The notes beneath the pieces were generated by a model. That model did not search any database. It was not told the DNA's origin and was given only the letters and a program-made list of their open reading frames with translations. A stretch of 64,000 bases of DNA, from NCBI GenBank assembly GCA_037447435.1, contig JBBIGR010000008.1, positions 47,681 through 111,680 on the forward strand, read 5' to 3'. The stretch is from Fibrobacteria bacterium (GTDB lineage: Bacteria > Fibrobacterota > Chitinivibrionia > Chitinivibrionales > FEN-1185). The first letter of the stretch is position 1, and each line of letters starts with the position of its first letter. A program made the position numbers and the translations under genes. Positions 24,217-64,000 of the stretch are shown piece by piece.

Positions 24217-24825
24217 TTGTTTCTAAAAAGAAAAAAAACCTTATTTGCTATAATTATTCTCGTTGCTGTCGGTATTTCCACATTTGCATTTCGACATCTT
24301 GCTCAGTGGCTTGTAATATCGGATCCTTTGCCGTTGTCGATAGATGCGATATTTACATTTGCAGGTGAAACGAACCGTCTTGTTTATTCAAAAGAATTAT
24401 ACGGAAAATATAAAGGCGCAGAATGGCTGATCAGTTATCCGTCAAAAAAGATTGCAATACCGCTCCGTAAAGACGGCTTTGATACATCCAGGATACAAAT
24501 AGTGGATTCATGTAAAAATACGAATTCAGAAGTGCTTTTTATAACTAGCTGGGCGGTTGATAAAATAAATAAATCTAACAAGTTTACACGGCAAAATCCT
24601 TTGCAGGTAGGGCTCGTTAGTACGCCGTTTCACATGCGTAGGATTCGTATGCAAATAATGCGCAAAAGTAAGAACGACCTTGTTCGATATTACTTCCTGC
24701 CGGTTCCATATAATAAATGCGGTTTTACAAAAGAAGACTATAAAATGTGGTGGAAAAATTACGTTCTTAAATCCGCAATAATTTTGGAATTAAAAAAAGT
24801 AGTATATTATTTTTTCAAGTATTAA
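24217..24825 (+). CDS. DUF218 (YdcF/SanA/ElyC-like) membrane-anchored protein
   Basis: N-terminal TM, then the pattern AIFTFAGETNRL...DSCKNTNSE...GLVSTPFHMRR typical of DUF218. TTG start, so the start is uncertain. Confidence 0.6.
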   Translation: MFLKRKKTLFAIIILVAVGISTFAFRHLAQWLVISDPLPLSIDAIFTFAGETNRLVYSKELYGKYKGAEWLISYPSKKIAIPLRKDGFDTSRIQIVDSCKNTNSEVLFITSWAVDKINKSNKFTRQNPLQVGLVSTPFHMRRIRMQIMRKSKNDLVRYYFLPVPYNKCGFTKEDYKMWWKNYVLKSAIILELKKVVYYFFKY

Positions 24826-24826
24826 T

Positions 24827-25528
24827 ATGCTTTTGTCAATAATTATACCCTGCTATAACGAAAACAAAACAATAACGCAGCTGCTTGAAAAAGTCCGCAA
24901 TGCGCATCTTCCTGCAGGCGTGACCAGAGAGCTTATTGTTGTTGACGATTGTTCTTCCGACGGGACAATTCAAATTCTTGAGCAAATGAAAGCTGAGGAT
25001 GTTAAAATATATTTCCATGGAAAAAATCAAGGAAAAGGGGCCGCTTTACGTACCGGCTTTTCCCATGCTCAAGGGGATGTCGTCGTTGTGCAGGATGCGG
25101 ATTTAGAGTATAACCCGGAGGAATTCGGGAAACTTTTAAAACCCATTCTCGATGGTCGGGCAGACGTCGTTTTTGGCTCGCGGTTTTGCACTACCGACGA
25201 ACGTCGAGTGTTATATTATTTTCACTTTCTAGGAAATAAACTTCTTACGTTTGTATCCAATATATTTACGAATCTAAACCTTACGGACATGGAAACCTGC
25301 TATAAAATGTTCCGTAAGGAAATCATCGATAAAATTACCATATGCGAAAACCGTTTCGGCTTTGAGCCGGAAATTACCGCCAAAATTGCAAAACAACATT
25401 GCCGCATTTACGAGGTCGGTATTTCCTATTCCGGCCGAACCTATGAAGACGGTAAAAAAATTGGTTTCAAAGATGCTTTCCGAGCAATGTGGTGCATCAT
25501 TAAGTATAATGTGTTTGCTAGAGGGTGA
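24827..25528 (+). CDS. GT2 glycosyltransferase, Dpm1/ArnC-like polyprenyl-phosphate sugar synthase type
   Basis: LSIIIPCYNE...VVDDCSSDGT...GKGAALRTGF...VVQDADLEYNPEEF...VFGSRF. Confidence 0.75.
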   Translation: MLLSIIIPCYNENKTITQLLEKVRNAHLPAGVTRELIVVDDCSSDGTIQILEQMKAEDVKIYFHGKNQGKGAALRTGFSHAQGDVVVVQDADLEYNPEEFGKLLKPILDGRADVVFGSRFCTTDERRVLYYFHFLGNKLLTFVSNIFTNLNLTDMETCYKMFRKEIIDKITICENRFGFEPEITAKIAKQHCRIYEVGISYSGRTYEDGKKIGFKDAFRAMWCIIKYNVFARG

Positions 25529-25532
25529 TTAA

Positions 25533-26483
25533 GTGGTAAATAAAAATTTTGCATTGACCGGTGCTGCGGGGTATATCGCACCGCGGCACATGAAGGCGAT
25601 AAAGGAAACCGGCAATAATCTCGTTGCGGCCTGTGATCCAAAAGACTCTGTTGGTGTACTTGACAAGTATTTTTTTAATGCCCGTTTTTTCCAGGAATTC
25701 GAAAGGTTTGACAGGCATTTGGAGAAATTACGACGCAAAGGCGAGAACGAACGGGTGCATTTTGTGAGTATTTGCTCGCCAAATTTTTTACACGATGCTC
25801 ATATACGCTTTGCACTTCGAATTGGGGCTGATGCCATATGCGAAAAGCCGCTTGTAATAAATCCGTGGAACATTGACGCTTTGCTCGAATTACAGCACGA
25901 ATATGGCAGGAAAATTTATACGGTACTTCAGTTACGCCTTCATCCAGCACTTAAAGCGTTAAAAGAAAAGTTTGCTGTAGAAAACAAAGCTGGTAAACAT
26001 GAAGTAGATCTTACCTACATCACCGCGCGAGGCAATTGGTATTTGGTCTCTTGGAAGGGTCAGATGGAACGGTCGGGCGGACTTGCTACAAACATCGGAG
26101 TGCATTTTTTTGATTTACTCATATGGCTTTTTGGGCCAGTGGAGGGTTTTGAGGTTCATGTTGCCGATGATCAAAAAATCGCAGGATATCTTGAATTGAA
26201 ACATGCACGGGTAAAATGGTTTTTGTCAATCGATATCAGCTATGTGCCTGCCCAGGCTGCTGCTGTTGGAAAAACGACGTTTCGATCCATCGTGATAGAC
26301 GGAAAAGAAGTGGAATTCTCTGAGGGATTTACAGATTTGCATACGGAGATTTATAAGGATATTCTTGCTGGAAACGGTTTTTTTCCCGAGGATGCAAGGG
26401 GCTCTCTCCAATTGGTTCACGATATACGAACAACCCTTCCAATCGGGATTACCCCTAATTCTCATAAATTTTTAAATCCATAG
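25533..26483 (+). CDS. wbpB: Gfo/Idh/MocA oxidoreductase, WbpB/WlbA-like UDP-GlcNAcA 3-dehydrogenase
   Basis: NFALTGAAGYIAPRHMKAIKETG, SICSPNFLH, ICEKPLV, DLTYITARGNWY..SWKG, ATNIGVHFFD and EFSEGFTDLHT all track the P. aeruginosa WbpB sequence as I recall it. 316 aa. GTG start. Confidence 0.75.
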   Translation: MVNKNFALTGAAGYIAPRHMKAIKETGNNLVAACDPKDSVGVLDKYFFNARFFQEFERFDRHLEKLRRKGENERVHFVSICSPNFLHDAHIRFALRIGADAICEKPLVINPWNIDALLELQHEYGRKIYTVLQLRLHPALKALKEKFAVENKAGKHEVDLTYITARGNWYLVSWKGQMERSGGLATNIGVHFFDLLIWLFGPVEGFEVHVADDQKIAGYLELKHARVKWFLSIDISYVPAQAAAVGKTTFRSIVIDGKEVEFSEGFTDLHTEIYKDILAGNGFFPEDARGSLQLVHDIRTTLPIGITPNSHKFLNP

Positions 26484-26496
26484 TCAGGAATTCTCA

Positions 26497-27156
26497 TTGT
26501 CCTATTTCAAGCATGAATCCGCATACATCGATGAACCGTGTTCGATAGGTGATGGAACAAAGATTTGGCATTTTTCCCATGTTATGAAAGGTGCAAAAAT
26601 CGGTACGGAGTGTATACTCGGGCAAAACGTTCAGATTGCAAATGACGTGGTTATTGGCAATAGAGTGAAAATACAAAACAATGTCTCCGTATATGCGGGA
26701 ACAATTATTGAAGACAACGTTTTTTTAGGACCATCTTGTGTTCTGACAAATGTAACTAATCCGCGTTCTGAAGTCAACAGGCATTCCTTATACGAAAAAA
26801 CAGTCATAAGGCGTGGGGCAACGATTGGTGCTAATGCTACTGTTGTTTGCGGCATCATGATAGGGTGCTACGCATTCATTGCGGCGGGCGCAGTTGTTTC
26901 AAAAGACGTACCTGATTATGCTCTCATGATGGGTGTACCGGCGCAGCAAAAAGGATGGATGAGCAGGCATGGACACTATTTAGCCGTTTCGAATAGCCAA
27001 GGCATATTCACTTGCCCTGAAAGCAATTTACATTACAAAATCGAAAACGGTCGAATGAAGTGCATTGATCTTGGTGAAGACGAGATTCTTCCTCTAGCTA
27101 TGTGTTCAGGCTCAAAGACATATGATGAATTTAAACTCCAATCGGCTATAAAATGA
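26497..27156 (+). CDS. wbpD: left-handed beta-helix N-acetyltransferase, WbpD/WlbB-like
   Basis: Hexapeptide repeats. IWHFSHV, LGQNV, GNRVKIQNNVSVY, GPSCVLTNVTNPR, GATIGANATVVCG, GAGAVVSKDVPDYALMMGVPAQQKGWMSRHG match WbpD-type enzymes. TTG start. Confidence 0.7.
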   Translation: MSYFKHESAYIDEPCSIGDGTKIWHFSHVMKGAKIGTECILGQNVQIANDVVIGNRVKIQNNVSVYAGTIIEDNVFLGPSCVLTNVTNPRSEVNRHSLYEKTVIRRGATIGANATVVCGIMIGCYAFIAAGAVVSKDVPDYALMMGVPAQQKGWMSRHGHYLAVSNSQGIFTCPESNLHYKIENGRMKCIDLGEDEILPLAMCSGSKTYDEFKLQSAIK

Positions 27157-28241
27157 AAAAAATCCTGACTGTTATTGGTGCTCGTCCTCAATTTATCAAA
27201 GCCTCTGTTGTGTCCAAAGCAATTATTGAAAGCGGCGAGTTTGAAGAGGTGCTTGTTCATACGGGCCAGCATTATGATAACAATATGTCGAAGATATTTT
27301 TTGACGAACTGGACATTTTACCTCCAAAATATAACCTTGAGATTGGCAGCTGCGGACATGGAGAGCAGACAGGTGAGATGCTTAAACGTCTCGAGCCCAT
27401 AGTAAATTCCGAAAATCCGGACATGGTTCTTATCTATGGCGACACAAATTCCACACTAGCAGGTGCACTAGTAGCTGCAAAAATGAATATCCCGGTAGCA
27501 CATGTTGAAGCGGGCTTACGCTCATTCAATAGGAAGATGCCAGAGGAAATAAACAGGGTAATTGCGGATCATATCTCCACGATTCTGTTTTGTCCCACAA
27601 CGACCGCAGTAAAAAATTTAAAAAATGAAGGTATTATAAACAATGTTTATATCACTGGTGATGTGATGTATGATGTTGCAATACAATTTGTTGAAAAAGC
27701 AAAATCAAAAAGTACTATATTGGCCAAACTGTTACTGACATCAAAAGGCTATATTCTGGTAACTATACACCGTGCCGAAAATACTGACGAAAGATTAAGA
27801 CTTATAAATATCCTCTCGGCGCTTGAAATACTATCATATAATTCCGTCATTATTTTTCCTATGCATCCTCGCACAAAAAAAATGATTGATTCTTTCGGCT
27901 TGAATAATTTTCTGGCGAATATTAAAGTGATTGCCCCTGCGGGATTTCTCGACATGATCAATTTGGAAAGTAATGCAAAACTTATAATGACCGATTCGGG
28001 AGGGGTACAGAAAGAAGCCTATTTTCACAAGACACCTTGTATAACATTGCGAAATGAGACTGAATGGACAGAAACAGTTGATGCCGGATGGAATGTGGTT
28101 GCTGGTAATCGGGATGCTTCAGACATTGTAAGTCTTGCCAATCGAATGCTAGAGTGGACTGGAAATCGAGAGCAAATTGCTGACTACGGTAACGGATGTT
28201 CTGCAAAATCAATTATTACACATCTAGCTGCTCTAAAGTAA
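27153..28241 (+). CDS. wecB: non-hydrolysing UDP-N-acetyl-sugar 2-epimerase (WecB family; WbpI-like by context)
   Basis: ILTVIGARPQFIK, HTGQHYD, GDTNSTLAGAL, HVEAGLRSFNRKMPEEINR, TDSGGVQKEA. ATGA overlap with wbpD. Confidence 0.85.
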   Translation: MKKILTVIGARPQFIKASVVSKAIIESGEFEEVLVHTGQHYDNNMSKIFFDELDILPPKYNLEIGSCGHGEQTGEMLKRLEPIVNSENPDMVLIYGDTNSTLAGALVAAKMNIPVAHVEAGLRSFNRKMPEEINRVIADHISTILFCPTTTAVKNLKNEGIINNVYITGDVMYDVAIQFVEKAKSKSTILAKLLLTSKGYILVTIHRAENTDERLRLINILSALEILSYNSVIIFPMHPRTKKMIDSFGLNNFLANIKVIAPAGFLDMINLESNAKLIMTDSGGVQKEAYFHKTPCITLRNETEWTETVDAGWNVVAGNRDASDIVSLANRMLEWTGNREQIADYGNGCSAKSIITHLAALK

Positions 28242-28259
28242 AAGAGGAGGTCAGTTATC

Positions 28260-29066
28260 GTGGGGAAAAAAGTTTTTGTCCTTTTGCCTGCTTTCAATGA
28301 AGAAAATTCAATGCGCCAGCTTATTACGGACATTTCTGAGTATATGCGGGTTAAGAAATTTGACTACCACATAATTGTTTGCAACGACGGAAGCAATGAT
28401 AAGACCGGGGATGAGCTTGCCAGACTATCGAAAGAATTCCCGTTTGAAATTCTAACCCATAAGTTGAATCGTGGTTTGGGAGAAACAGCACGTGACCTTT
28501 TTGAACGAGCAGCCGAGCTGTCTAAGATTGGGGACTATATTGTACGCCTTGACGCGGACAACACCCATGAACCTCAAAATATTGGAAATCTGATTAACAA
28601 ACTTGAAGAGGGCTTTGACGTTGTGACTGCATCTCGGTTCCAAAAAGGCGGTGGTCAACATGGTGTAAGTGCTTATCGAGCGCTTATATCAAACTGCGCC
28701 CAGATTTTCATGAAATTTATATTTGGGTTCAAAGGAATGAGGGAATTTTCATGTGGATTCAGAGTTTACCGAGCAGAAATTATTAAAAAAGCCATTGAAT
28801 TTTATGGCAATAATTTTATTCAATTAAAAGGAATGGGATTTACTGGAACGCTTGAAAAAATGGTAAAGCTTAAATTGCTCAACGCAAGGTTTGCAGAAGT
28901 CGGATTTCAATTGCGGTACGACAAAAAAACCAGCTATAGCAAAATGATAACAAGTATTACTACTTTGGGATATTTAGCAATGGCGCTTTTTTACCACTGG
29001 CCTTGGGGTGGGTGGAAATTTGGATATAAAAAACTTTTGAGGGAATATGACAAAAGATCTAAATGA
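28260..29066 (+). CDS. GT2 glycosyltransferase, second Dpm1/ArnC-like polyprenyl-phosphate sugar synthase type
   Basis: VLLPAFNEE...VCNDGSNDKT...NRGLGET...RLDADNTHEP...TASRF. GTG start after GAGGAGG. Confidence 0.7.
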   Translation: MGKKVFVLLPAFNEENSMRQLITDISEYMRVKKFDYHIIVCNDGSNDKTGDELARLSKEFPFEILTHKLNRGLGETARDLFERAAELSKIGDYIVRLDADNTHEPQNIGNLINKLEEGFDVVTASRFQKGGGQHGVSAYRALISNCAQIFMKFIFGFKGMREFSCGFRVYRAEIIKKAIEFYGNNFIQLKGMGFTGTLEKMVKLKLLNARFAEVGFQLRYDKKTSYSKMITSITTLGYLAMALFYHWPWGGWKFGYKKLLREYDKRSK

Positions 29067-29874
29067 GGTTAGACATTTTTGGGAAGAGAATCCATTATTT
29101 AGTGGTGAAGCAAAGAATCCACTTGGGACGAAGGGTTTTTTTGAAGAGCATCGAAACGTTTATATAAATGATTGTTTTGCCGGCACATTAGATGACAAGC
29201 TATTTCCTGAAAAAATAAAAAATGAAAAAATATTAGATTTAGGATGCGGTGTCGGGATGTGGGCAACTGAATTTGGTCTTGTCGGGTATGCAAACATTAC
29301 TGCGGCAGACTTGACTATAAGTGGATTGCTTCTTACAAGGCAAAGAGCAGCAATAAATGACATTAAATTGGACTTGTGTCAGGCTAATGCAGAAAAGTTA
29401 CCATTAAAGAATGCAACTTTTTCACATGTGAATTGCCAGGGAGTAATACATCATACGCCTAATACAGCTGCTTGCGTAGAAGAAATAGCCAGAGTATTGC
29501 AAAAAAACGGTACAGCCATTATTTCAGTTTATTATAGGAATATATTTCTAAGATTATGGCCGCTCTTTAAATGGGTAAGCAAAATTGTTTATTCTATTGG
29601 TGGAAAACTTCGCGGACGTGGAAGAGATGGAATATTCAATATTGATGACCCAGATGAAGTAGTGCGGCTATATGATGGCAAATTAAATCCAATAGGGAAA
29701 AGCTATTCAAAAAAAAAAATTATCGAGTTGCTAACCCCAGCATTTGTCATTGAAGAAATATTTTACCATTTCTTTCCAGCAAGAGCATTGCCTTTTAAAA
29801 TTCCAAAATTCATTCACAAAGTTCTAGACCAAACTTTCCCATTTATGATATTTGTAAAATTAAGGAAGAAATAA
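29047..29874 (+). CDS. class I SAM-dependent methyltransferase (1 of 8)
   Basis: Motif I ILDLGCGVGMW, FSHVNCQGVIHH and LQKNGTAIIS. Contains an A11 tract at 29709..29719. Confidence 0.75.
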   Translation: MTKDLNEVRHFWEENPLFSGEAKNPLGTKGFFEEHRNVYINDCFAGTLDDKLFPEKIKNEKILDLGCGVGMWATEFGLVGYANITAADLTISGLLLTRQRAAINDIKLDLCQANAEKLPLKNATFSHVNCQGVIHHTPNTAACVEEIARVLQKNGTAIISVYYRNIFLRLWPLFKWVSKIVYSIGGKLRGRGRDGIFNIDDPDEVVRLYDGKLNPIGKSYSKKKIIELLTPAFVIEEIFYHFFPARALPFKIPKFIHKVLDQTFPFMIFVKLRKK

Positions 29875-31758
29875 ATGTGTGGGATTGCCGGAATTTTTAA
29901 TATCGATGATGATGTTAAGCCACAAATACTAAAGGATATGGCAGAAACGATTAATCATCGTGGCCCCGACGCAAGCGGTGAATTTATTCGAGGCAAAACA
30001 GGTGTAGCTCATAAACGCTTATCAATTATTGATATCCAATCCGGTCAACAGCCAATGTGGGACAAAGAGCATCGCTATATTATAGTTTTCAATGGCGAAA
30101 TATATAATTATCTTGAGCTTCGCCAGGAGTTAGTACAGGCTGGCTGTGCGCTTGTCACACATTCTGATACAGAAGTATTGTTGAATCTTTATATTATTCA
30201 TGGTCCCGCTTGTTTGCAGAGATGTATCGGGATGTTCGCTTTTGCTATTTATGACATTAAGGAACAAACGGCGTTCCTTGCAGTAGACCGATTTGGCATA
30301 AAACCTTTATATTATATAGAGTCAAAAGATGGTTTTCTTTTTGCTTCGGAAATAAAAGCGTTACTAAAACATCCTGCTGTAAAGGCTGGTGTAAATAGCG
30401 GTGCCATGTATGAATATCTCACGTTTCAGTTCTTTCTTTATGATCGAACGCTTTTCCATGGAATACGCAAGCTTGAACCGGGAACATTTCTAATTATAAA
30501 AAATGGAAAAATAGAGCGAAAGAGCATTTACTGGGAGTTGAAATTCGATATAGATTCACATCATACCGAAGATTATTTTATTGAAAAGCTTGGGTTTCTG
30601 TTACAAGATTCTGTTCGTTTGCAATTGAGAAGCGATGTGCCGGTTGGCGCTTATCTTTCAGGCGGTCTCGATTCTTCCGCAATCACCTGCTATGCTTCTC
30701 AACTTCTTGGCACGCCCATTTCTACATTTACAGGAGGATTTAAAGAATCAGATCAGTATGATGAATCCGGGTATGCGCGAATCGTGTCGGAAGCAGAAAA
30801 AACTTTACATCATGAAGTCTTTCCCACGGCGCAGGACTTCGTCGACATTATTGGAAAACTGATTTATTTTATGGATCAGCCCGCAGCCGGTCCGGGATTA
30901 TTCCCGCAATATTTTGTATCGAAAATGGCTTCTCAAAATGTAAAAGTTGTGCTGGGAGGACAGGGCGGAGATGAGATTTTTGGAGGATATGCTAGATATC
31001 TTGTTGCGTATCTAGAGCAGTGTCTGAAATCTGCTATTTATGAACAGCATGAAGAAGGCCGGTTTGTTGTTACGCTCGGAACCATAATTCCAAATTTGTC
31101 TTTGCTTAAAAATTATGTTCCGTTGATTAAAAACTTTTGGTCCAATGGAATTTTTGAGCCAATGGATAAGCGATATTTTCAGCTTATAAATAGGCTGAAA
31201 GGGAACGCAAAATTATTCTCCCCTGATTTCTTAAAATCATACGACGAATCTAAATCTTTTGAAACCTTTGCTGCATTGTTCAATCAGCCTGAAACAAAAT
31301 CCTATTTCAACAAAATGACATGCTTTGATATGCGCACACTTCTCCCCGCTTTATTGCAGGTAGAAGACCGCATGAGTATGGCCGTTTCGCTTGAATCAAG
31401 AGTTCCGCTTCTGGATCATAGGATTGTTGAGCTTGTGGCGTCCATGCCACCAACGCTCAAATTTGCAGAAGGAAAAACAAAGCAAGTTTTTCGTCAAGTT
31501 GTTAAGGATCGTGTTCCTCCCGCAATATTAAACCGCAAAGATAAGATGGGCTTTCCTGTTCCATTATCTGAATGGTTTAAAGCTGGAGTAGTGCGCGATT
31601 TTGTCCTTGATACATTGCTGTCCGACAAATCGAAAAACCGCGGTCTTCTTAACCAAAGCGAAATTACGAATTATCTTGAACAGGAAAAGCCATTTGACAG
31701 AGGGCTTTGGGGTGCTCTATGCCTTGAGCTCTGGTATCAAAATTTCATTGACGTGTAA
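29875..31758 (+). CDS. asnB: asparagine synthase (glutamine-hydrolysing) family amidotransferase, copy 1
   Basis: N-terminal MCGIAG (Ntn Cys), HRGPD, HKRLSIID, FNGEIYNY and the PP-loop SGGLDSS. 627 aa. Confidence 0.85.
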   Translation: MCGIAGIFNIDDDVKPQILKDMAETINHRGPDASGEFIRGKTGVAHKRLSIIDIQSGQQPMWDKEHRYIIVFNGEIYNYLELRQELVQAGCALVTHSDTEVLLNLYIIHGPACLQRCIGMFAFAIYDIKEQTAFLAVDRFGIKPLYYIESKDGFLFASEIKALLKHPAVKAGVNSGAMYEYLTFQFFLYDRTLFHGIRKLEPGTFLIIKNGKIERKSIYWELKFDIDSHHTEDYFIEKLGFLLQDSVRLQLRSDVPVGAYLSGGLDSSAITCYASQLLGTPISTFTGGFKESDQYDESGYARIVSEAEKTLHHEVFPTAQDFVDIIGKLIYFMDQPAAGPGLFPQYFVSKMASQNVKVVLGGQGGDEIFGGYARYLVAYLEQCLKSAIYEQHEEGRFVVTLGTIIPNLSLLKNYVPLIKNFWSNGIFEPMDKRYFQLINRLKGNAKLFSPDFLKSYDESKSFETFAALFNQPETKSYFNKMTCFDMRTLLPALLQVEDRMSMAVSLESRVPLLDHRIVELVASMPPTLKFAEGKTKQVFRQVVKDRVPPAILNRKDKMGFPVPLSEWFKAGVVRDFVLDTLLSDKSKNRGLLNQSEITNYLEQEKPFDRGLWGALCLELWYQNFIDV

Positions 31759-31787
31759 CGCTAATATGTTTTCACTTCATTAATTGG

Positions 31788-36580: not shown

Positions 36581-36604
36581 TTCGAAATCATTGGGAAATA
36601 AATT

Positions 36605-37381: not shown

Positions 37382-37393
37382 AATCAATTAATA

Positions 37394-39268: not shown

Positions 39269-39288
39269 TTAAATCGACTTTAAATAAA

Positions 39289-41431: not shown

Positions 41432-41435
41432 TCCT

Positions 41436-42215: not shown

Positions 42216-42244
42216 CGCACTTTTATTATCAGGGAACATCTTTT

Positions 42245-47072: not shown

Positions 47073-47074
47073 AC

Positions 47075-52127: not shown

Positions 52128-52131
52128 AAGT

Positions 52132-53936: not shown

Positions 53937-53997
53937 ATATTGTATTGACTAATTATAACAGCTGATGCATGGTTTTTATCAAAGGGAAAGAAACTTA

Positions 53998-55872: not shown

Positions 55873-55889
55873 ACTAAAATAAGGATTCT

Positions 55890-56873: not shown

Positions 56874-56939
56874 TATTATATTATTGCACCGATAGGCTAT
56901 TTAAAGGACTGTTTTTGTACCCTTTTTTTATGGGAAAAC

Positions 56940-58082
56940 ATGCATATCGTTATTGACGCTCTATCATCCGTAAGTGGTGGGGCTGAATCGTATCTGCGCA
57001 ATTGTTTACCAAGATTATACGATCTTTTTTTGGCAAGTAAAGGGGAGCACAAATTTACGATTCTTGCCTTTAAAGAGCAAACCCATCTGTTTCCATTGGT
57101 TCCTAAAAGTGCATGTTTCCTGATTGAAAAAAAAAGAATTTCAGGATTTAAGCTAGCACTATGGCAACGGTTCTCCCTGAGGCGCATAGTAAAAGATCTT
57201 GCTGCAGATGTTCTTTTCACGCCATACCAAGTCGGAAGGCCCTATCCCGGCGTAAAGCGGGTTGTTATGTTTAGGAATATGGATCCGTTTACTTTTCATA
57301 AATACAAATATGGTGCTTTTCTGGTTTTTCGCAAAACCATTTTAAAATGGGAATCAATATTTTCAATGAAGCATGCCGATCGTGTGATTGCAGTTTCTGA
57401 GTATGTAAAAAATTTTGCAGAAAAAGAACTTAAAATTGATTCCAATAAAGTTTTTACGATTCATCATGGCAGAGATCTTAGGTTTTGTCCCGAAGCTGAT
57501 TTGGAAAAAGACTCTCAAATTCTAAACGAGTTCGGTATTTCAACGCCTTTTATTTTTACCTGTGGATTGTTATGGCCTTATCGTCGCTGTGAAGATGTGA
57601 TTCGGGCTTTCGATGGTGCGATAAATTTGGACAACAATTGTCATCTTGTTATATGCGGCACCGGCTTTAAGCCGTATGTTCGTTTTATTGAAAAATGTAT
57701 TTCTCAATCGAAACGAAAAAATAACATTCGGATGTTGGGCAATGTATCCGTAGAGGCAATGCAGGTGTTCTTCAGAAAATGCAAAATATGCGTTATTGCT
57801 ACTGAAGTAGAGGCATGTCCAAATATAGCAATTGAAGCGTTGTCCTCAGGCAGTGCGATAATTTCCGCAGATAACCAGCCACTTACGGAAATTTTTGCAA
57901 ATAGTGTAGGATATTTTTCCTCAAGAAACACCAAGGAACTAGCCATCATGATGAACAATGTTTTCAATGATCCTCAAGAAATCTCCAATTTAAAATGCCG
58001 CGCTTTAAAAAGGGCCAGCGCATTTTCATGGGATCAATGCGCAATAAGAACATATTCTGCCCTTGTAAATTGGCAAATCTAA
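56940..58082 (+). CDS. glycosyltransferase family 4 (GT-B)
   Basis: An E-x7-E region (TEVEACPNIAIEALSSGSAIIS) and a typical GT4 N-terminus (MHIVIDALSSVSGGAESY). Confidence 0.75.
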   Translation: MHIVIDALSSVSGGAESYLRNCLPRLYDLFLASKGEHKFTILAFKEQTHLFPLVPKSACFLIEKKRISGFKLALWQRFSLRRIVKDLAADVLFTPYQVGRPYPGVKRVVMFRNMDPFTFHKYKYGAFLVFRKTILKWESIFSMKHADRVIAVSEYVKNFAEKELKIDSNKVFTIHHGRDLRFCPEADLEKDSQILNEFGISTPFIFTCGLLWPYRRCEDVIRAFDGAINLDNNCHLVICGTGFKPYVRFIEKCISQSKRKNNIRMLGNVSVEAMQVFFRKCKICVIATEVEACPNIAIEALSSGSAIISADNQPLTEIFANSVGYFSSRNTKELAIMMNNVFNDPQEISNLKCRALKRASAFSWDQCAIRTYSALVNWQI

Positions 58083-58128
58083 TTTGAAATAATTGTATTT
58101 CACAAAAAGTAATCTAAAGGTTTGAAAA

Positions 58129-58830
58129 ATGAAAAAAGAGCCTAATAAATTATCTAGGGACAAATGGGTAATTCAGGAACTTTTAAAAATTCCCAAAGGA
58201 TTTAGACTGCTTGATGTTGGCGCAGGTACATCCCCTTACAGAATTTTTTGCAAACATCTGATATATGAGTCTCAAGATTTCTGTCAACTTGATCCTCAAC
58301 AAATGGGTGGAAAAAATTATCCTTTACATACATTTGCAAGTGATGTCTGTTCTATTCCAGCACCCGATGCGACGTATGATGCAATACTCTGCACGGAGGC
58401 ATTGGAACATTTTCCAAGGCCAATTGAGGCAATTGGAGAAATGGTGCGTTTACTTAAAATGGGCGGCACCCTTTTTCTTACTGCGCCGTTAGGAAGCGGA
58501 TTGCATCAAAAGCCATATCATTATTATGGAGGATTCACTCCATTTTGGTATGAGTATGTCTGTAAAGAATATGGTTTAGGAGTCAAGTCCATACAACCTT
58601 CCGGTGGTTTTTTCTTTTTATTAGCCCAGGAATGTGCGAGGGCTGAGGTTTTTTTGCGCAAGAGTATTGATTGCAAAAAATGGACAAAGTTACTATGGTT
58701 AATTTTAGGACCAATTTTGAGGTGTTTTATAGCACCCGTATTTCGGATTATTGATAGACCTTCGGCATCTTCAGAATTTACTATAGGTTACCATGTAGTT
58801 TGTGTCAAGCAAAAAGATGTCCGAAATTAA
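58129..58830 (+). CDS. class I SAM-dependent methyltransferase (8 of 8)
   Basis: RLLDVGAGTSPY, YDAILCTEALEHFPRP and LKMGGTLFLTAP. Confidence 0.7.
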   Translation: MKKEPNKLSRDKWVIQELLKIPKGFRLLDVGAGTSPYRIFCKHLIYESQDFCQLDPQQMGGKNYPLHTFASDVCSIPAPDATYDAILCTEALEHFPRPIEAIGEMVRLLKMGGTLFLTAPLGSGLHQKPYHYYGGFTPFWYEYVCKEYGLGVKSIQPSGGFFFLLAQECARAEVFLRKSIDCKKWTKLLWLILGPILRCFIAPVFRIIDRPSASSEFTIGYHVVCVKQKDVRN

Positions 58831-58903: not shown

Positions 58904-59461
58904 GTGAATACAGTTGATTTAGGGTCCTATCAAAAAGTCTACAATCCAGGGAATTTAGTGAGAACAATTATGTGGTATTTCGTCAATATAACAATTTTTC
59001 AATCGGGATTGCCATATCCGACTTTTTTAAAGGTATGGTTGCTTCGCTTTTTTGGAGCATCAGTTGGCAGCAAAGTTATGGTAAAGCCAGGCATCGCAAT
59101 AAAGTACCCATGGCATCTTTCTATCGGAAATAACGTCTGGCTGGGTGAAAAAGTATGGATTGACAATCTAGCCAAGATAATTATTGGCAATAATGTATGT
59201 ATTTCCCAAGGGGCATATCTGATGACCGGGAATCATGATTATAAAAAGCCCTCATTCGATCTCATTATTGCTCCTATTATTATTGAAGACGGGGTATGGG
59301 TGGGGGCGCGAGCTGTAATTTGTCCTGGTGCTAAGCTTGGAACTCATTCGGTGATTACTGCCGGGAGTGTGGCAGTTGCGAATACGCCACAATTTACAAT
59401 ATGTCAAGGCAATCCAGCCGTTCCGACAAGGAAAAGAGTCATAGATCATGAAGCCAGTTGA
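58904..59461 (+). CDS. hexapeptide-repeat O-acetyltransferase (WcaF-like)
   Basis: LLRFFGASVGSKV, IGNNVWLGEKVWI, GNHDY and GVWVGARAVICPGAKLG. GTG start. Confidence 0.75.
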   Translation: MNTVDLGSYQKVYNPGNLVRTIMWYFVNITIFQSGLPYPTFLKVWLLRFFGASVGSKVMVKPGIAIKYPWHLSIGNNVWLGEKVWIDNLAKIIIGNNVCISQGAYLMTGNHDYKKPSFDLIIAPIIIEDGVWVGARAVICPGAKLGTHSVITAGSVAVANTPQFTICQGNPAVPTRKRVIDHEAS

Positions 59462-60572
59462 GCTTTGCAAGGAAAAATCGAGTTTTTTACATTTTACACG
59501 ATGGCTTGCCGCGTTCATTGTTTTGGTAGGTCATACTCAGATGGTTGCTTCTCTGACATTTGGCAAAGAGATGAACTATAATTCCATCCATTGGTACTAT
59601 TATTTTTGTTTTCATGCTCATATTGCTGTGATAATGTTTTTTGTTCTAAGCGGATATGTGGTGGCGTACTCCACATTCATCAAACTTAACGGTTCTGATG
59701 AGTATCGATTTGTCAATTATTTTATAGATAGATGGTCCAGAATATATTCTGTCCTAATAGCGGCGATTATATTGACAATAGTGCTGGATTTTTACGGGAA
59801 ATATTTCAATAGGTTGTATTTTGATTCAGCCATTATTCCTCAAGATCACAGAGTTATGCGGCTTTTATTGAATATTTGCAGTCTTCAGGGGCTTCATGGT
59901 TATAGGATCCAATTCGGCAGCAATTCGGCATTATGGTCTATTGGATATGAATTTTGTTATTACTTCATTTTTGGGCTAGTGGTTTTTTCAAAACAACTCA
60001 TAAAGCGAAAAATATTACTTTATCCGATACTTTTAGGTGTTTCAGTAATTATCGGGTCGAAAATGCTTTTCTACTTTTTAATTTGGAGTATGGGTGTTTT
60101 TGCTTTTTGGATATTTCATTATAAGAAATATCATTTGCCTTTTTTCATTCGTATTTGGTTGTGTGTTCTTGCAGTAATTGCAAATCATTTTATTGTTTAT
60201 AAAAATATATTTACTCATAATCAATATATACAAGACCTCATTATGGGTCTGATATTTTCATTAATCCTGCTTTGTGATGGCAACAGAAACGGAGTTAATG
60301 GCTTTATTAAAAGGGTAAATACATTCATGTCGGATTTCAGCTATTCATTATATGCATATCATTTGCCGATCTTAATGTTTATAAGCATGAGCCTAAGCAG
60401 GATTATTCGTGCAAAGCATGTCGAGTTTTATCAATTGTCTATTGGTCTCTCAATTGCGAGCTTTTTCATTGTCAGAGTATTGTATCTTTTTACGGAACAT
60501 CAAAGAGGCAAATTAAAAGCTCTAGCCTATACTATTTTACGAAATACCACGACAATAGATAGGAACCGATGA
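59448..60572 (+). CDS. acyltransferase family 3 integral membrane O-acyltransferase (OafA/WecH-like)
   Basis: FLHFTRWLAAFIVLVGH N-terminal motif and about 10 TM segments. Confidence 0.75.
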   Translation: MKPVELCKEKSSFLHFTRWLAAFIVLVGHTQMVASLTFGKEMNYNSIHWYYYFCFHAHIAVIMFFVLSGYVVAYSTFIKLNGSDEYRFVNYFIDRWSRIYSVLIAAIILTIVLDFYGKYFNRLYFDSAIIPQDHRVMRLLLNICSLQGLHGYRIQFGSNSALWSIGYEFCYYFIFGLVVFSKQLIKRKILLYPILLGVSVIIGSKMLFYFLIWSMGVFAFWIFHYKKYHLPFFIRIWLCVLAVIANHFIVYKNIFTHNQYIQDLIMGLIFSLILLCDGNRNGVNGFIKRVNTFMSDFSYSLYAYHLPILMFISMSLSRIIRAKHVEFYQLSIGLSIASFFIVRVLYLFTEHQRGKLKALAYTILRNTTTIDRNR

Positions 60573-61807
60573 ACGTTTTAATTATTAATCAAACTTTTTT
60601 CCCTGATCAGGTCGCGGTCTCTCAGTATCTCACAGATTTCACTGAACAGCTTGCAAATTCAGGGCATCGGATTAAAGTGCTGGCAGGGTCACGTGACTAT
60701 GAAAATCCATCTATAGTTTTTGCGCGATCTGAGACATACAAAACGATTGCGGTGGAGCGCATAGGGTCGACACAATTTATTAAAAAAACTAAGTTTGGAA
60801 GGCTTGTCAATTTCGTAAGTTTTAATCTTGCATTATGCGCACATTTATTCTTTTCTGAACGAAGTCGATATGATCTTGTCATCGGATCAACCGTGCCGCC
60901 AATGGTTGGTATTGTCGCAAGTTTATTTTCCTTTTTTCATAATGTACCATTTATCTATTGGGTTATGGACCTGCAGCCCGACGAGGCTATTGCTGCGGAT
61001 TACTTAAAACAAAACTCCCTTATTGCTCGTACTATGATTTTGGCAGGAAAAATTCCTTTGAGGTTAGCTTGCTCGATAATTGTTCTTGACTCATATATGA
61101 AAGAACGAATCAAGACAAAAGGAATTACAGAAAATAAAATATCCGTTGTTCCCCTATGGCCGATTATTGATAAGGACTCGTTTAATGACGAGTCGGCACT
61201 TGCCTTCCGCAAAAAACATGGGTTTGGCGAAAAAACCGTTGTGATGTATTCGGGAAATCATTCTGTTTGCCATCCATTAGATACATTGCTGGAAGCGAGT
61301 AAAGTACTTGAGGGGACGAACGAGTTCATTTTTGCTTTTGTCGGAGGAGGAGTTCGCGTTGATCAAGTAGCCCGCGAAGTAAAGACGTACGGTCTGAAGA
61401 ATGTAATCCAGCTGCCATATCAAAAAAGAGAATTTCTGGCAGACGTTCTTCTTTCGGCCGATATTCACATTGTTGTCATGGGCGATCCTTTTGTCGGCAT
61501 TATTCATCCATCCAAAATCTACGGTATCCTTGCCGTGGGAAAGCCATTTGTTTTTATCGGACCAGACCAATGCCATGTGAAAGATATTATAAAGGATGTC
61601 GGATTTGGATATGATGTTCGTACCGGAGATTCGTCTGGATTAGTATCTGCATTGCTTTCGATACGAAATCTTTCTACTCAACAGCTTGAAATTGCGAAGG
61701 AAAACGAGCGGAAATTTGCATATGACACATTTGGTCGAAAAGAATGCGCCGGCCGGATTGCGGCAATTGCCGAGAACTCCGTAAAATTGAGGAAAAAGCA
61801 AGTTTGA
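60569..61807 (+). CDS. glycosyltransferase family 4 (WbuB/WcaI-like)
   Basis: MNVLIINQTFFPDQVAVSQYLTDFTEQLANSGHRIKVLAG is a typical WbuB/WcaI-type N-terminus. ATGA overlap with the upstream gene. Confidence 0.7.
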   Translation: MNVLIINQTFFPDQVAVSQYLTDFTEQLANSGHRIKVLAGSRDYENPSIVFARSETYKTIAVERIGSTQFIKKTKFGRLVNFVSFNLALCAHLFFSERSRYDLVIGSTVPPMVGIVASLFSFFHNVPFIYWVMDLQPDEAIAADYLKQNSLIARTMILAGKIPLRLACSIIVLDSYMKERIKTKGITENKISVVPLWPIIDKDSFNDESALAFRKKHGFGEKTVVMYSGNHSVCHPLDTLLEASKVLEGTNEFIFAFVGGGVRVDQVAREVKTYGLKNVIQLPYQKREFLADVLLSADIHIVVMGDPFVGIIHPSKIYGILAVGKPFVFIGPDQCHVKDIIKDVGFGYDVRTGDSSGLVSALLSIRNLSTQQLEIAKENERKFAYDTFGRKECAGRIAAIAENSVKLRKKQV

Positions 61808-62781
61808 AACAAACCATATTAATAACTGGAGCGAATGGCTTTATTGGATCAAATATCTGCAGACATTTACTTGCTGCAGGATACGAGTGTCGAGTCCTGG
61901 TTCGAACAAAAAGTGGAGTACCCTCTGGCTGCGATATAGTATTAGGAGAATTTGAGAATACCATTTTGGCTCCAGATATCTTCCGAAATGTTCATGCGGT
62001 TGTTCATTGTGCCGCTCACGTTCACAAAATGGGAAGAATGAAAGGCAGCGATAACGAGGAATACTTCCGGGTCAACAGAGATCTCACTCAGAAGCTTGCT
62101 CAAAGCGCGATCTCCGTCGGTATAAAAATGTTTATTTTTCTAAGCAGTACCAAGGTGATGGGTGACCATAATGCTTTGGGCAAAATATATACCGAAGAAG
62201 ACACTCCTATGCCTACAGACTCGTATGGCCAGAGCAAATATGAGGCTGAAAAGATTCTAAAGGAACTTTATATATCGGAATCGGAGTTGCAATGTGTGGT
62301 TCTGCGGCTTCCGATGGTCTATGGACCTGCCAACAAAGGCAATATGATTTCGCTTATAGCAACGGCAAGTCGAGGAATCCCTTTGCCGCTTTCGGCTGCT
62401 CGCGGAAAACGTAGCATGATCTATATCGGGAATATTTGCAGCGCTATTGAAACGTTGCTAGCATGGGAAGGGAAAACCAAAAATTCCTGGGAATGTTTTA
62501 ATTTGACAGATACGATAGATATAACAAGTAAGCAGCTTTATAGGGCCATTTACGGCTCGTTTAGAAATGGAACCGGTATATTATGGTTTCCAGAAATCCT
62601 TGTAAATCTAGTACGGCGAATTGTGCCGTTATGTGAGCCTGTAATATCACGGTTGTTTAATTGTTACAGATTCTCGTCGAAAAAGTTCCAGAAAACCTTT
62701 GAGTGGTCGGCGCCGTTTTCATTTGAAGAGGGCATTGCAGAAACTATTACATGGTACAAAAAAAAATCTATCAATCAATAA
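61804..62781 (+). CDS. NAD-dependent epimerase/dehydratase family SDR (WbpK/4-keto-reductase-like)
   Basis: ILITGANGFIGSNI Rossmann motif and YGQSKYEAE (the YxxxK catalytic motif). TTG 61804 overlaps the upstream stop. The ORF-track ATG 61744 would overlap the GT4 gene by 64 nt. Confidence 0.75.
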   Translation: MKQTILITGANGFIGSNICRHLLAAGYECRVLVRTKSGVPSGCDIVLGEFENTILAPDIFRNVHAVVHCAAHVHKMGRMKGSDNEEYFRVNRDLTQKLAQSAISVGIKMFIFLSSTKVMGDHNALGKIYTEEDTPMPTDSYGQSKYEAEKILKELYISESELQCVVLRLPMVYGPANKGNMISLIATASRGIPLPLSAARGKRSMIYIGNICSAIETLLAWEGKTKNSWECFNLTDTIDITSKQLYRAIYGSFRNGTGILWFPEILVNLVRRIVPLCEPVISRLFNCYRFSSKKFQKTFEWSAPFSFEEGIAETITWYKKKSINQ

Positions 62782-63338
62782 AACGCATTTTTGATGTGTC
62801 GGCGGCGGCAGCGGCTTTAATCATACTTGCCTTGCCGCTTGGTTGTATTGCATTGGCAATTAAATTGACCTCCTCCGGTCCTGTCATTCACTGGTCAAGA
62901 CGAATCGGTAAGAATAATTTGCTTTTTCAAATGGCAAAATTCCGGACAATGCGCGTTGATACACCTCAAGTAGCAACGCACCTTTTGAAAGATTCAAGTG
63001 CGTATGTAACCTCGATAGGCAAATTCCTCCGGAAATTCAGTCTGGACGAATTACCGCAATTGATAAATATTATTTCAGGAGATTTGAGTTTCGTAGGGCC
63101 AAGGCCGGCGCTTTTCAATCAGGATGATCTCATACGTTTAAGAACTGAAAAAAATGTTCATAAATTCATCCCCGGGCTTACAGGTTGGGCCCAAATTAAT
63201 GGGAGAGATGAATTGCAGATCCCCCAAAAAGTAGAATTTGATGCTTACTATTGCGAACATAGTTCATTCTTATTTGACATTAAAATTATTGTCTTAACAG
63301 TGTTTAAAGCGTTTTCAGGGGCAGGGGTTTGCCATTAA
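62751..63338 (+). CDS. small monotopic phosphoglycosyl transferase (bacterial sugar transferase, PglC/WcfS-like); initiating enzyme
   Basis: KRIFDVSAAAAALIILALPL re-entrant helix, KFRTM, SLDELPQLINIISGDLSFVGPRP and PGLTGWAQING. 195 aa. Confidence 0.85.
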   Translation: MVQKKIYQSIKRIFDVSAAAAALIILALPLGCIALAIKLTSSGPVIHWSRRIGKNNLLFQMAKFRTMRVDTPQVATHLLKDSSAYVTSIGKFLRKFSLDELPQLINIISGDLSFVGPRPALFNQDDLIRLRTEKNVHKFIPGLTGWAQINGRDELQIPQKVEFDAYYCEHSSFLFDIKIIVLTVFKAFSGAGVCH

Positions 63339-63436
63339 ATATGTATTCCTAATTTGAAGAGCACATATATAAGAAAATAATGATTCTGGCCTGTTATGCC
63401 GGATCTGTTTTGATAGAAAAGAAATAAGCACAATTT

Positions 63437-64000
63437 ATGATTACATCGCGGTTACTAACTCATCCATTATTGAAGTATCGTTTACCTGTCATCGTTTTAT
63501 TACATGCCTGTTTTGCGGCCTGTGCGCTTTACCTGTCATTTCTTCTTCGTTTTGACTTTACACTTGGGCGTGGAATTTATCCCAGGTTATTCTGGGTATC
63601 TTTGCCTCTAAACGTCCTTGTGTTTCTTATAATTTCTGGTGTTTTTAATTTGTACCAGGGCATCTGGCGTTATGTTAGCGTCGATGATTTAAAGGACATT
63701 GTTGAAACTTCAGCGATTTCGTCTCTAGGATTTATGTTTGCAATAATTATTAGCGGTCAATTTGCTGGATATCCCCGTTCTATTTATGTAATGAATTTTG
63801 CGTTGTTTATTCTTCTTAACGGCGGTACCCGTTTTGGGATTAGAATTTTCCGTGAGTCTTTCGCTCCTCAAAGCGATACGGCGAAAAATGTGCTTATCGT
63901 TGGTGCTGGAACCGCGGGTAATGAAATTGCAAAAACGCTCAAAGCGGCAAAACACAGAGAATATATTCCGATCGGGTTTATTGACAATGACAAAAGCAAA
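63437..64000 (+). CDS. CapD/WbpM/PglF-like membrane-anchored nucleotide-sugar 4,6-dehydratase (5' part; runs off the window end)
   Basis: Absent from the ORF track because it is open-ended. My translation from ATG 63437 reads MITSRLLTHPLLKYRLPVIVLLHACFAACALYLSFLLRFDF..., followed by four TM-like segments and then the Rossmann motif NVLIVGAGTAGNEIAK. No stop up to position 64000. Confidence 0.75.
   Translation, partial: MITSRLLTHPLLKYRLPVIVLLHACFAACALYLSFLLRFDFTLGRGIYPRLFWVSLPLNVLVFLIISGVFNLYQGIWRYVSVDDLKDIVETSAISSLGFMFAIIISGQFAGYPRSIYVMNFALFILLNGGTRFGIRIFRESFAPQSDTAKNVLIVGAGTAGNEIAKTLKAAKHREYIPIGFIDNDKSK

Follow-up and report, generated by a model that had tools for sequence, protein, structure and literature searches.

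Does the long run of co-directional genes in a Fibrobacterota genome build a single surface glycan, and how far does that glycan depart from known bacterial polysaccharides? We addressed this question for a stretch of 64,000 nucleotides (the window; positions 47,681 to 111,680 of contig JBBIGR010000008.1, Fibrobacteria bacterium, assembly GCA_037447435.1), in which an initial annotation had described the genes from 24217 to 64000 as a single-strand glycan operon going well beyond textbook O-antigen or capsule loci. Our analysis indicates that the genes probably serve one Wzx/Wzy-dependent pathway to an O-antigen- or capsule-like heteropolysaccharide that would be extensively tailored in the cytoplasm and further decorated in the periplasm. 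Taken together, they make a cluster of the conventional Wzx/Wzy type, large and unusually rich in tailoring enzymes, and the predicted glycan would carry methylated, amidated, amidinated and O-acetylated diamino-uronic acids, an unusual product made with known modification types.

The open reading frame (ORF) table holds 37 plus-strand genes between 24217 and 64000, 36 of them complete and one (ATG at 63437) cut by the window edge, in agreement with the count first given. The largest gap is indeed about 98 nt (63339-63436; all others are 73 nt or less), and the 4-nt ATGA or 1-nt TAATG overlaps listed at 27153, 33083, 35405, 48250, 50226, 52815 and 60569 agree with the ORF coordinates, the ATG at 35405 being residue 9 of the longest ORF of a DegT gene that opens at 35381. 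An independent gene call on a contig from the Logan assemblies gave an additional ATGA overlap at 61804. The proposed start at 24217 was not sustained, and the unit is not contained within 24217-64000: the plus-strand series runs unbroken from 21821 to the window edge, a NusG paralog lies directly upstream, and genes for Wzy, a Wzz-type polysaccharide co-polymerase (PCP) and a GT2 enzyme lie divergently at 18110-21678. The long arm probably starts with the NusG/UpxY-like gene at 23439, and the probable single Wzx/Wzy locus covers at least 18110 to past 64000, a cluster of at least 46 kb. Its left arm, regulator and core export and initiation genes are as follows.

18110-19057, minus strand: GT2 glycosyltransferase (GT), the ninth GT (PF00535, 73 bits; NCBIfam exopolysaccharide and teichuronic-acid GT2 models below cutoff)
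19064-20347, minus strand: Wzy-type oligosaccharide repeat-unit polymerase (TIGR04370, 50 bits, cutoff 40, aligned over 18-399)
20443-21678, minus strand: kinase-less PCP, a Wzz/KpsE-like chain-length determinant (PF02706 Wzz and PF13807 GNVR; BexC/KpsE and EpsF models below cutoff)
23439-24002, plus strand: specialised NusG paralog, UpxY/LoaP/RfaH-like (PF02357; UpxY model NF033644 best, E = 2.9e-18)
39250-40761, plus strand: MOP-family flippase, Wzx (PF01943, 70 bits; PF13440)
62751-63338, plus strand: small monotopic phosphoglycosyl transferase (PGT), the initiating enzyme (PF02397 Bac_transf, 196 bits)
63437-64000, plus strand, cut by the edge: probable CapD/WbpM/PglF-like membrane protein, N-terminal 187 aa (29% identity, E = 7e-12, to a protein of metagenome contig L085)

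All the components that define a Wzx/Wzy pathway, namely a PGT, a MOP flippase, Wzy and a PCP, were thus found in the window. No OPX (outer-membrane polysaccharide export)/Wza or Wzc kinase domain was detected in any window ORF of at least 100 aa, which bears out the absence noted initially for the operon; the polymerase and chain-length regulator nearby had been overlooked. The lack of an exporter and kinase, an organism of the Fibrobacteres-Chlorobi-Bacteroidetes (FCB) group and a NusG paralog at the cluster head would all suit a general protein O-glycosylation cluster, and a comparison with Bacteroidia lfg-type clusters had been proposed. The comparison is unfit, as the organism belongs to Fibrobacterota, not Bacteroidia, and the adjacent Wzy and Wzz-type PCP indicate a polymer. 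There was also no match to an oligosaccharyltransferase family in the window, and we consider a cluster of this type highly improbable.

The PGT at the 3’ end was confirmed as first described, and the CapD identity of its neighbor stood as the more likely reading of the 187 N-terminal residues seen. From residue 38 onward, this ORF aligns with the N-terminus of an L085 protein that carries CoA_binding_3 and Polysacc_synt_2 domains, with a WRYxSxxDL motif in common, and its sole Protein Data Bank (PDB) match is the WbpM-type N-terminal domain 3nkl. The same region is also homologous to the N-terminus of large PGTs, leaving some doubt, and from these alignments a CapD/WbpM/PglF-like protein is more likely than a second large PGT. 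The 3’ block is completed by the genes below, the first two of which make up an O-acetylation pair spanning 58904-60572.

58904 (start), plus strand: WcaF-family acetyltransferase (NF007797, 221 bits, cutoff 192)
59448-60572, plus strand: membrane Acyl_transf_3 protein (PF01757, 52 bits)
60569-61807, plus strand: WcaI-like GT4 (NF007640, 134 bits, below the cutoff of 276; GT4 Pfam domains)
61804-62781, plus strand: SDR (short-chain dehydrogenase/reductase)-family NAD-dependent sugar epimerase/reductase (PF01370, 111 bits; 325 aa in the Logan gene call)

Is the long arm transcribed as one unit? We infer a single operon from the long, tight, co-directional packing, which nothing contradicts. Scans for sigma-70-type promoter and intrinsic-terminator consensus gave counts equal to those of shuffled sequence, although these consensus sequences may not apply to this phylum, and none of the internal gaps longer than 50 nt was better folded as RNA than its shuffles (z from -0.8 to +0.2). 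NusG paralogs of the RfaH, UpxY and LoaP type maintain the processivity of RNA polymerase along extended polysaccharide operons. By analogy, the paralog at 23439 is probably the processivity factor of the long operon, and its place at the head therefore lends indirect support to a long transcript. It is followed by an AT-rich leader of 214 nt, of which 24100-24216 folds with z = -1.8. The arrangement resembles the Bacteroides UpxY/UpxZ capsular polysaccharide loci in that a long co-directional polysaccharide operon follows a specialised NusG paralog, with UpxY as the best family. It differs from them in its score below the cutoff, in the absence of UpxZ (a DUF218-like gene comes next after the NusG paralog), in the absence of invertible promoter repeats (no inverted repeat of at least 14 nt within 21500-24400), in its phylum, Fibrobacterota, and in the position of the NusG gene after pyrE without a dedicated promoter region. 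The interval between the divergent wzz and the NusG paralog (21821-23394, plus strand) encodes a hydrolase of the metallo-beta-lactamase (MBL) fold (best match GPMC-system MBL, 226 bits, below cutoff) and PyrE.

A chimeric assembly is unlikely, because two short Logan contigs (run SRR11582168) independently reproduce the arrangement and the GC content is even, at 0.36-0.41 across the window. These contigs match the window at about 20195-28569 and 59738-63220 with identical proteins, the latter ending inside the PGT gene. An exact 51-mer from the window edge had no match in the JGI metagenomes.

Which sugars would such a pathway assemble? The first genes of the long arm and a trio further downstream point to di-N-acetylated and acetamidino-bearing uronic acids.

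24217-24825, plus strand: membrane-anchored protein with a weak DUF218 (SanA/ElyC/YdcF-like) match (PF02698, 23 bits, below cutoff; no NCBIfam match)
24827-25528, plus strand: short GT2, candidate polyprenyl-phosphate sugar synthase, GtrB/DPM1-like (PF00535, 136 bits)
25533-26483, plus strand: WbpB/WlbA UDP-GlcNAcA 3-dehydrogenase (phmmer against PDB 3o9z, E = 4e-103, and 3oa2, E = 1e-101, full length)
26497-27156, plus strand: WbpD/WlbB 3-N-acetyltransferase (phmmer against PDB 3mqg, E = 3e-63; hexapeptide repeats)
27153-28241, plus strand: non-hydrolysing UDP-HexNAc 2-epimerase of the WecB/WbpI/MndD type, a family-level match only (TIGR00236, 336 bits, cutoff 210; PF02350, 359 bits)
40820 (start), plus strand: HisH (TIGR01855, 231 bits, cutoff 105)
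41418 (start), plus strand: AglZ/HisF2/WbuZ (NF038364, 365 bits, cutoff 310)
42245-43414, plus strand: WbuX N-acetyl-sugar amidotransferase (TIGR03573, 296 bits, cutoff 203)

The Wbp-type set of diamino-uronic acid enzymes described at first was partly upheld. WbpB and WbpD are true orthologs; WbpA is missing from the window, in which no UDPG_MGDP_dh domain was found, and may be encoded elsewhere on the 152.6-kb contig. The sole DegT protein (35381) does not resemble a canonical WbpE: its score is higher for perosamine synthetase (103 bits) than for WbpE (65 bits), and its similarity to sugar aminotransferases is confined to the N-terminal half. The acetamidino module is complete, its three subunits being adjacent (40820-43414) and all exceeding their curated cutoffs. 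The HisH/HisF2/WbuX trio corresponds to hisH2/hisF2/wbpG of the Pseudomonas aeruginosa O5 cluster, whose B-band wbp genes in strain PAO1 comprise wzz, wbpA-E, wzy, wzx, hisH2, hisF2, wbpG and wbpH-M.

The two loci are alike in their dependence on Wzx, Wzy and Wzz, in the WbpB, WbpD and WbpI orthologs for a di-N-acetylated (manno)uronic acid, in the HisH/HisF/WbpG(WbuX)-type module, and in the 3’ order of GT, SDR, initiating transferase and CapD/WbpM-like dehydratase. The present locus is about twice as long, and has in addition three AsnB proteins, eight methyltransferase-fold proteins, a CE4 protein, a lyase/epimerase-fold enzyme, ArnC-like GT2s and a GT-C protein. It also differs from O5 in that a Bac_transf PGT initiates, in place of the WecA-family WbpL, in that wbpA and a canonical wbpE are absent from the window, and in that wzy and wzz are divergent.

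Pfam and NCBIfam matches agreed with the tallies of tailoring and assembly enzymes first reported: eight GTs (24827, 28260, 44304, 47015, 50226, 52815, 56940 and 60569), eight methyltransferase-fold proteins (29047, 33083, 36605, 43475, 51246, 52117, 55890 and 58129), three AsnB amidotransferases (29875, 48250 and 53965), the amidination module, Wzx, two acyltransferases and the PGT. Two proteins had been set aside as unassignable, and we count three without assignment (24217, 31788 and 33828). TIGR03108 (eps_aminotran_1) is the first or second match of all three AsnB proteins, at 483, 498 and 546 bits against a cutoff of 817, and all three pass the generic AsnB model TIGR01536. The uronamide-forming enzymes WbpS and WbqG belong to the TIGR03108 family (PMC7468200), and a review of Escherichia coli O-antigens lists WbuX, WbpS and MndA-D as standard enzymes (PMC7685785).

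The claim that this combination goes well beyond textbook loci was therefore overstated, since every module has a textbook counterpart and the mix recurs elsewhere. The counterparts are wbpB/D/I with hisH2/hisF2/wbpG in P. aeruginosa O5, the WbpS/WbqG uronamides and the Gtr/Arn-type periplasmic decoration. AsnB, several methyltransferases, an amidino module and acetyltransferases recur together in other metagenomes and in a cultured cyanobacterium, which weakens the earlier claim of exceptionality. No homologous cluster whose glycan has a solved structure came to light. As a mosaic, the locus combines Wbp genes, a cassette shared across phyla, the amidino genes, a further module (module C, 43475-58830) and the 3’ block of acetyltransferases, GT, SDR, PGT and CapD-like genes.

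The cassette is the part of this mosaic that reaches furthest across phyla. It comprises eight genes (28260-37381), and is followed by a large membrane protein gene.

28260 (start), plus strand: ArnC-like GT2 (top NCBIfam matches are polyprenyl-phosphate GTs including ArnC, below cutoffs)
29047 (start), plus strand: methyltransferase, cassette gene 2
29875 (start), plus strand: AsnB/WbpS-like amidotransferase, cassette gene 3
31788 (start), plus strand: VimE-like CE4 deacetylase, 432 aa (NF053580, 69 bits, cutoff 440, model positions 160-430)
33083 (start), plus strand: methyltransferase, cassette gene 5
33828-35408, plus strand: lyase/C5-epimerase-fold enzyme, 526 aa (AlphaFold2 model and Foldseek)
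35381 (start), plus strand: divergent DegT aminotransferase, cassette gene 7
36605-37381, plus strand: methyltransferase, cassette gene 8
37394-39268, plus strand: GT-C-fold membrane protein, 624 aa, probable start 37436 (polytopic N-terminal part and soluble C-terminal domain)

In the complete genome of the cultured cyanobacterium Oxynema aestuarii (CP051167, 269000-290571), the cassette genes stand in the same order as in the window, with identities of 60% for GT2, 59% for the methyltransferase, 56% for AsnB, 48% for the CE4-like protein, 55-56% for the 33828 protein and 61% for DegT. The order there is WbpB, WbpD, DegT, GT2, methyltransferase, AsnB, a 448-aa protein, a 33828-family member, DegT, two methyltransferases, a sulfotransferase, Wzx and a 527-aa protein, which parallels window positions 25533-40761. 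This locus, itself uncharacterised, thus resembles ours in the cassette order, WbpB, WbpD, Wzx and a remote GT-C-like family member. It has in addition sulfotransferases, a FemAB/Acetyltransf_6 protein, a canonical second DegT and a WbpA-like dehydrogenase, and over the 21 kb seen it is without module C and without the amidino module. The WbpA-like UDP-sugar dehydrogenase (921 aa, at the locus head; L087 1-875) carries an intein with an Intein_splicing domain (PF14890) and a LAGLIDADG endonuclease domain.

A Gemmataceae metagenome-assembled genome (MAG) has, beside lipopolysaccharide (LPS)-core genes, a compact form of the cassette with a GT2, a CE4-like protein (45% identity), a 33828-family member, DegT, a methyltransferase, a formyltransferase and a 695-aa protein without assignment. 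Overall, the cassette is 45-61% identical, with its order kept, between the window and Cyanobacteria and Planctomycetota. In a Latescibacterota MAG (JBHPMH010000007; L091), the cassette is disrupted by insertion sequences, with DDE_Tnp_1 and DDE_3 transposases at 6372-7913 and 13291-14593; transposases around and within the cassette are consistent with mobility or decay of the module. Another copy, in ENA ERZ25039483 contig_992 (L088 6793-9998), has AsnB in three ORFs, the CE4-like gene in four and fragmented sulfotransferase genes downstream, which could reflect either pseudogenisation or frameshift errors of long reads. Six cassette genes are conserved in order over at least three phyla, their product is uncharacterised, and a cultured carrier, O. 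aestuarii, is available.

Two short GT2s and the 37394 protein suggest that part of the product is added in the periplasm. The top five NCBIfam matches of the 24827 protein (AglJ, ArnC, PgfS, PpgS and dolichyl-phosphate hexose transferase) are all polyprenyl-phosphate GTs, all below cutoff. The AlphaFold2 model of the 37394 protein is confident (pLDDT 93, pTM 0.92), and its ten best Foldseek matches are all GT-C proteins, among them STT3, ArnT (TM-score 0.44/0.48), AftA and ALG3, with probabilities of 0.89-1.0. An early loop carries a WDDGLG motif. The family forms 96 representative clusters among 1.84e9 proteins; no Pfam match was found in the 55 members scanned, nor any NCBIfam match, and a scan of the genome collection with the 624-aa protein returned no relative. 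On its modeled fold, the protein is probably a member of an undescribed GT-C-fold family that pairs with ArnC-like GT2s for periplasmic decoration. The 527-aa protein beside Wzx in Oxynema is a remote member of this family (hhalign 99.1%); Wzx adjoins the GT-C gene in the window, in metagenome contig L089 and in Oxynema, and other members lie between a methyltransferase and Wzx (L089) or directly 5’ of HisH and HisF. The large unassigned proteins of the Gemmataceae and Latescibacterota cassettes were also considered as members, and this was unsupported.

A lipid-linked donor together with a GT-C enzyme is the hallmark of three-component periplasmic glycosylation (PMC11127046). Compared with such systems (GtrA/GtrB/Gtr*, and ORF15/14/12 of Citrobacter youngae; PMC11127046) and with Arn, the window likewise has short GT2s, whose best matches are polyprenyl-phosphate sugar synthases, and a GT-C-fold enzyme, with DegT and CE4 proteins in the places of ArnB and ArnD, and its MOP transporter adjoining the GT-C gene is comparable to the MATE flippase of C. 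youngae. In contrast to those systems, the GT-C protein belongs to no described family, there is no GtrA/SMR-type flippase, ArnA and ArnD models match no window protein, and the donor sugar is unassigned. By this analogy, the cassette may parallel Arn, with DegT for ArnB, GT2 for ArnC, CE4 for ArnD and GT-C for ArnT, and a formyltransferase in the Gemmataceae version.

The other protein for which structure was informative is the cassette protein of 33828. Its family numbers at least 893 homologs over several phyla, with 47-56% identity among the best 120 listed, and the AlphaFold model (pLDDT 89, pTM 0.92) shows an (alpha/alpha)-toroid and a beta-sandwich. Foldseek matched it to the uronate-specific lyases PL8, PL12, PL15, PL17 and PL33 and to human dermatan-sulfate epimerase 1 (TM-score 0.45-0.52, probability 1.0), and no signal peptide was found. 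The modeled fold suggests that the enzyme is cytoplasmic and removes the proton at C5 of a uronate; its most plausible activity would be C5-epimerisation of an intermediate linked to a nucleotide or a lipid. A hydrophobic/amphipathic helix pair is inserted in the beta-sandwich (residues ~429-462 in the 521-aa numbering, LQFIVLRLMALTIMKNARLGNFIKNILVRILI), and could attach the enzyme to the membrane on its cytoplasmic side. Searches of the 31788, 33828, 37394 and 45594 proteins against the PDB by sequence returned nothing, and the reading of 31788 comes from its weak VimE match. VimE is a CE4 deacetylase proposed to strip the 2-N-acetyl group from UDP-diNAc-glucuronate (PMC7468200).

Taken together, the cassette could encode an undescribed Arn-like, lipid-linked pathway. 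It would build a modified diamino-uronic sugar, perhaps N-methylated and amidated, load it on polyprenyl phosphate, remove its N-acyl group while it is on the lipid, flip it and add it to surface glycans in the periplasm, although we regard this only tentatively and think it somewhat doubtful. If it is true, decoration of this kind would be widespread, reaching Fibrobacterota, Cyanobacteria, Planctomycetota, Latescibacterota and others, with a new GT-C family and the first biosynthetic role for a PL-fold enzyme on a nucleotide- or lipid-linked uronate.

Does the remainder of the long arm belong to the same product? Module C fills the interval between the amidino module and the 3’ block; except where stated, assignments are from Pfam and NCBIfam.

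43475 (start), plus strand: DUF268 methyltransferase-like protein
44304 (start), plus strand: GT4
45594 (start), plus strand: polytopic membrane protein, 492 aa (no Pfam match, role unassigned)
47015 (start), plus strand: Glyco_trans_1_2 protein
48250 (start), plus strand: AsnB
50226 (start), plus strand: GT2
51246 (start), plus strand: methyltransferase
52117 (start), plus strand: methyltransferase
52815 (start), plus strand: Glyco_trans_1_2 protein
53965 (start), plus strand: AsnB
55890-56873, plus strand: methyltransferase with an N-terminal, Trm112-like zinc ribbon (NF038101, 27 bits; CxxC...CxxC at residues 11-42)
56940 (start), plus strand: GT4
58129-58830, plus strand: methyltransferase

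A sub-module of this interval recurs in soil metagenomes, in contigs L083 and L085, as DUF268, methyltransferase, membrane protein and Glyco_trans_1_2, then methyltransferase, GT2, AsnB, methyltransferase and GT4, at 32-40% identity. The zinc ribbon of the 55890 methyltransferase is kept in its L083 homolog (40% identity). A recent duplication inside module C was rejected: the AsnB pair is 39% and the Glyco_trans_1_2 pair 21% identical, and the adjacent methyltransferases align over only about 40 residues. The family of the 492-aa protein has 7 members, including itself, among 5.8e9 proteins (a profile search brought in just one fragment); none of the 6 members scanned matched Pfam, and a Glyco_trans_1_2 gene always lies next downstream. 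Together with 33828 and 37394, which now have confident folds, 45594 represents one of three families absent from Pfam and NCBIfam.

The separate recurrence of these modules raises the possibility that the locus is a composite of at least two tandem glycan pathways. Modules A and B (24.8-43.4 kb; Wbp enzymes, cassette, GT-C, MOP flippase and amidino module) would then build or decorate one glycoconjugate, such as LPS core, lipid A or a side branch, by an Arn-like route through lipid-linked sugars, and a second polymer, methylated and amidated, would come from modules C and D (43.5-64 kb), its polymerase being the 492-aa protein. In favor of this, Oxynema and Gemmataceae have module A but no module C, in the latter by LPS-core genes and a formyltransferase, and L083 and L085 have module C but no module A; in L085, a Wzz/GNVR gene immediately precedes the gene for the 492-aa homolog. 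The window also has two polymerase-sized polytopic proteins (Wzy at 19064 and the protein at 45594), and the DegT, ArnC-like GT2, CE4 and GT-C proteins of the cassette parallel ArnB, ArnC, ArnD and ArnT. However, the window has one PGT and one MOP flippase, the genes are packed on a single strand with overlaps and no terminator signal, and no ArnD or ArnA model is matched. Moreover, when the 492-aa family was considered as a relative of Wzy or of the GT-C family, hhalign gave no signal. We regard a composite as unlikely, although it deserves more weight than the other alternatives.

A single Wzx/Wzy pathway, which we favor, would operate as follows. The CapD-like dehydratase and the SDR protein would supply a first sugar of the 6-deoxy-HexNAc type, which the PGT would load on undecaprenyl phosphate, and cytoplasmic GTs would then extend the chain with residues including diacetamido-uronic acids. 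Tailoring would consist of uronamide formation (AsnB), acetamidino formation (WbuX/HisH/HisF), N-deacetylation (VimE-like CE4), possible C5-epimerisation, methylation and O-acetylation. Wzx would flip the repeat unit, Wzy would polymerise it and the PCP would fix the chain length. The two short ArnC/GtrB-like GT2s (24827 and 28260) would make polyprenyl-phosphate sugars that the GT-C enzyme (37394) would transfer to the glycan in the periplasm, and the NusG paralog would keep RNA polymerase processive over about 40 kb.

Several points weigh against this account. The modules recur independently elsewhere, and more than one glycan could therefore be made. The diacetamido-uronic acid route is incomplete as seen, because the window has no WbpA and its DegT does not resemble a canonical WbpE. 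The GT-C assignment comes from likeness of fold, for which the E-values are marginal (1e-3 to 3e-2) and the TM-scores 0.4-0.5, and no GtrA-type flippase for the lipid-linked donors was found in the window, where no small GtrA-like ORF fits any gap; the sole transporter is the MOP protein at 39250, which adjoins the GT-C gene. The NusG paralog scores 66 bits to the UpxY family against a cutoff of 100, and LoaP and RfaH also match. A single transcript is presumed from gene packing, and the promoter consensus of this phylum may differ from that used in the scan. The 3’ end lies beyond 64000, and the point where the unit stops is out of view, as would be any OPX, WaaL, WbpA or WbpE encoded there.

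Could the glycan instead serve protein secretion? The genes upstream of the locus include a type IX secretion system (T9SS) component, given here with its 5’ neighbor.

8282-9373, plus strand: FGE-sulfatase-domain protein, overlapping the start of sprA by 4 nt
9370-15702, plus strand: SprA/Sov T9SS outer-membrane translocon, 2,110 aa (TIGR04189, 510 bits, cutoff 200; no Pfam match)

SprA/Sov lies about 2.4 kb from the left arm in an FCB-group organism, and WbpB, WbpD, the 2-epimerase, WbpS-like AsnB and VimE-like CE4 are the combination that defines the Wbp/Vim pathway (PMC7468200). These observations would fit a glycan that anchors T9SS cargo, resembling anionic LPS (A-LPS), with a linking sugar of the Wbp/Vim type like that of Porphyromonas gingivalis and Tannerella forsythia. 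The pathway of those species (Veith et al. 2020, PMC7468200) is matched here in its Wbp enzymes, with WbpS-like AsnB and VimE-like CE4 proteins, and in its FCB group and T9SS; the present genes differ in that they lie within a 40-kb polymer locus with many tailoring enzymes, in that no VimA (FemAB/Acetyltransf_6/GNAT domain) or VimF homolog was found in the window, and in their weak likeness to VimE (69 bits against a cutoff of 440). In addition, the CE4 protein is 45-48% identical to proteins of Cyanobacteria and Planctomycetota. We know of no use of T9SS in those two phyla. The proximity of sprA may also be a coincidence, because relatives keep sprA without the glycan locus, and we consider an anchor role of this kind improbable.

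Housekeeping genes (galT, tRNA-Met, tilS, ftsH, folP, rng and rplU) also lie upstream of the locus. Among 185,579 species genomes, RNase G (15807) has its nearest counterparts, at 66-69% identity, in MAGs labelled Chitinispirillia, Chitinispirillales, Fibrobacteraceae and Fibrobacteres, and all else is at most 43% identical. This places the window in an uncultured, Chitinispirillia-like lineage of Fibrobacterota, and a Bacteroidota origin was rejected. The block folP, FGE-sulfatase-like gene, sprA and rng is syntenic in two Fibrobacterota MAGs, L003 and L006, with sprA-sized ORFs of 2,084 and 2,063 aa. The genes past rng differ in both, and the glycan locus is therefore specific to this lineage at this position. 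An L006 ORF at 18226 was tried as a homolog of the NusG paralog and rejected as not homologous. The locus adds surface-glycan genetics for Fibrobacterota outside Fibrobacter, beside a T9SS translocon gene.

No tandem repeats were found, and an Rfam scan returned one tRNA and no other element. This tRNA-Met (CAT anticodon; 3589-3664, plus strand) overlaps the 5’ end of the longest TilS-like PP-loop ORF (3634-5079, plus strand), so the true start of tilS has to be downstream of 3664. The cumulative GC skew rises monotonically over 1-64000 and most genes are on the plus strand, suggesting that the plus strand is the leading strand, which alone favors gene co-orientation.

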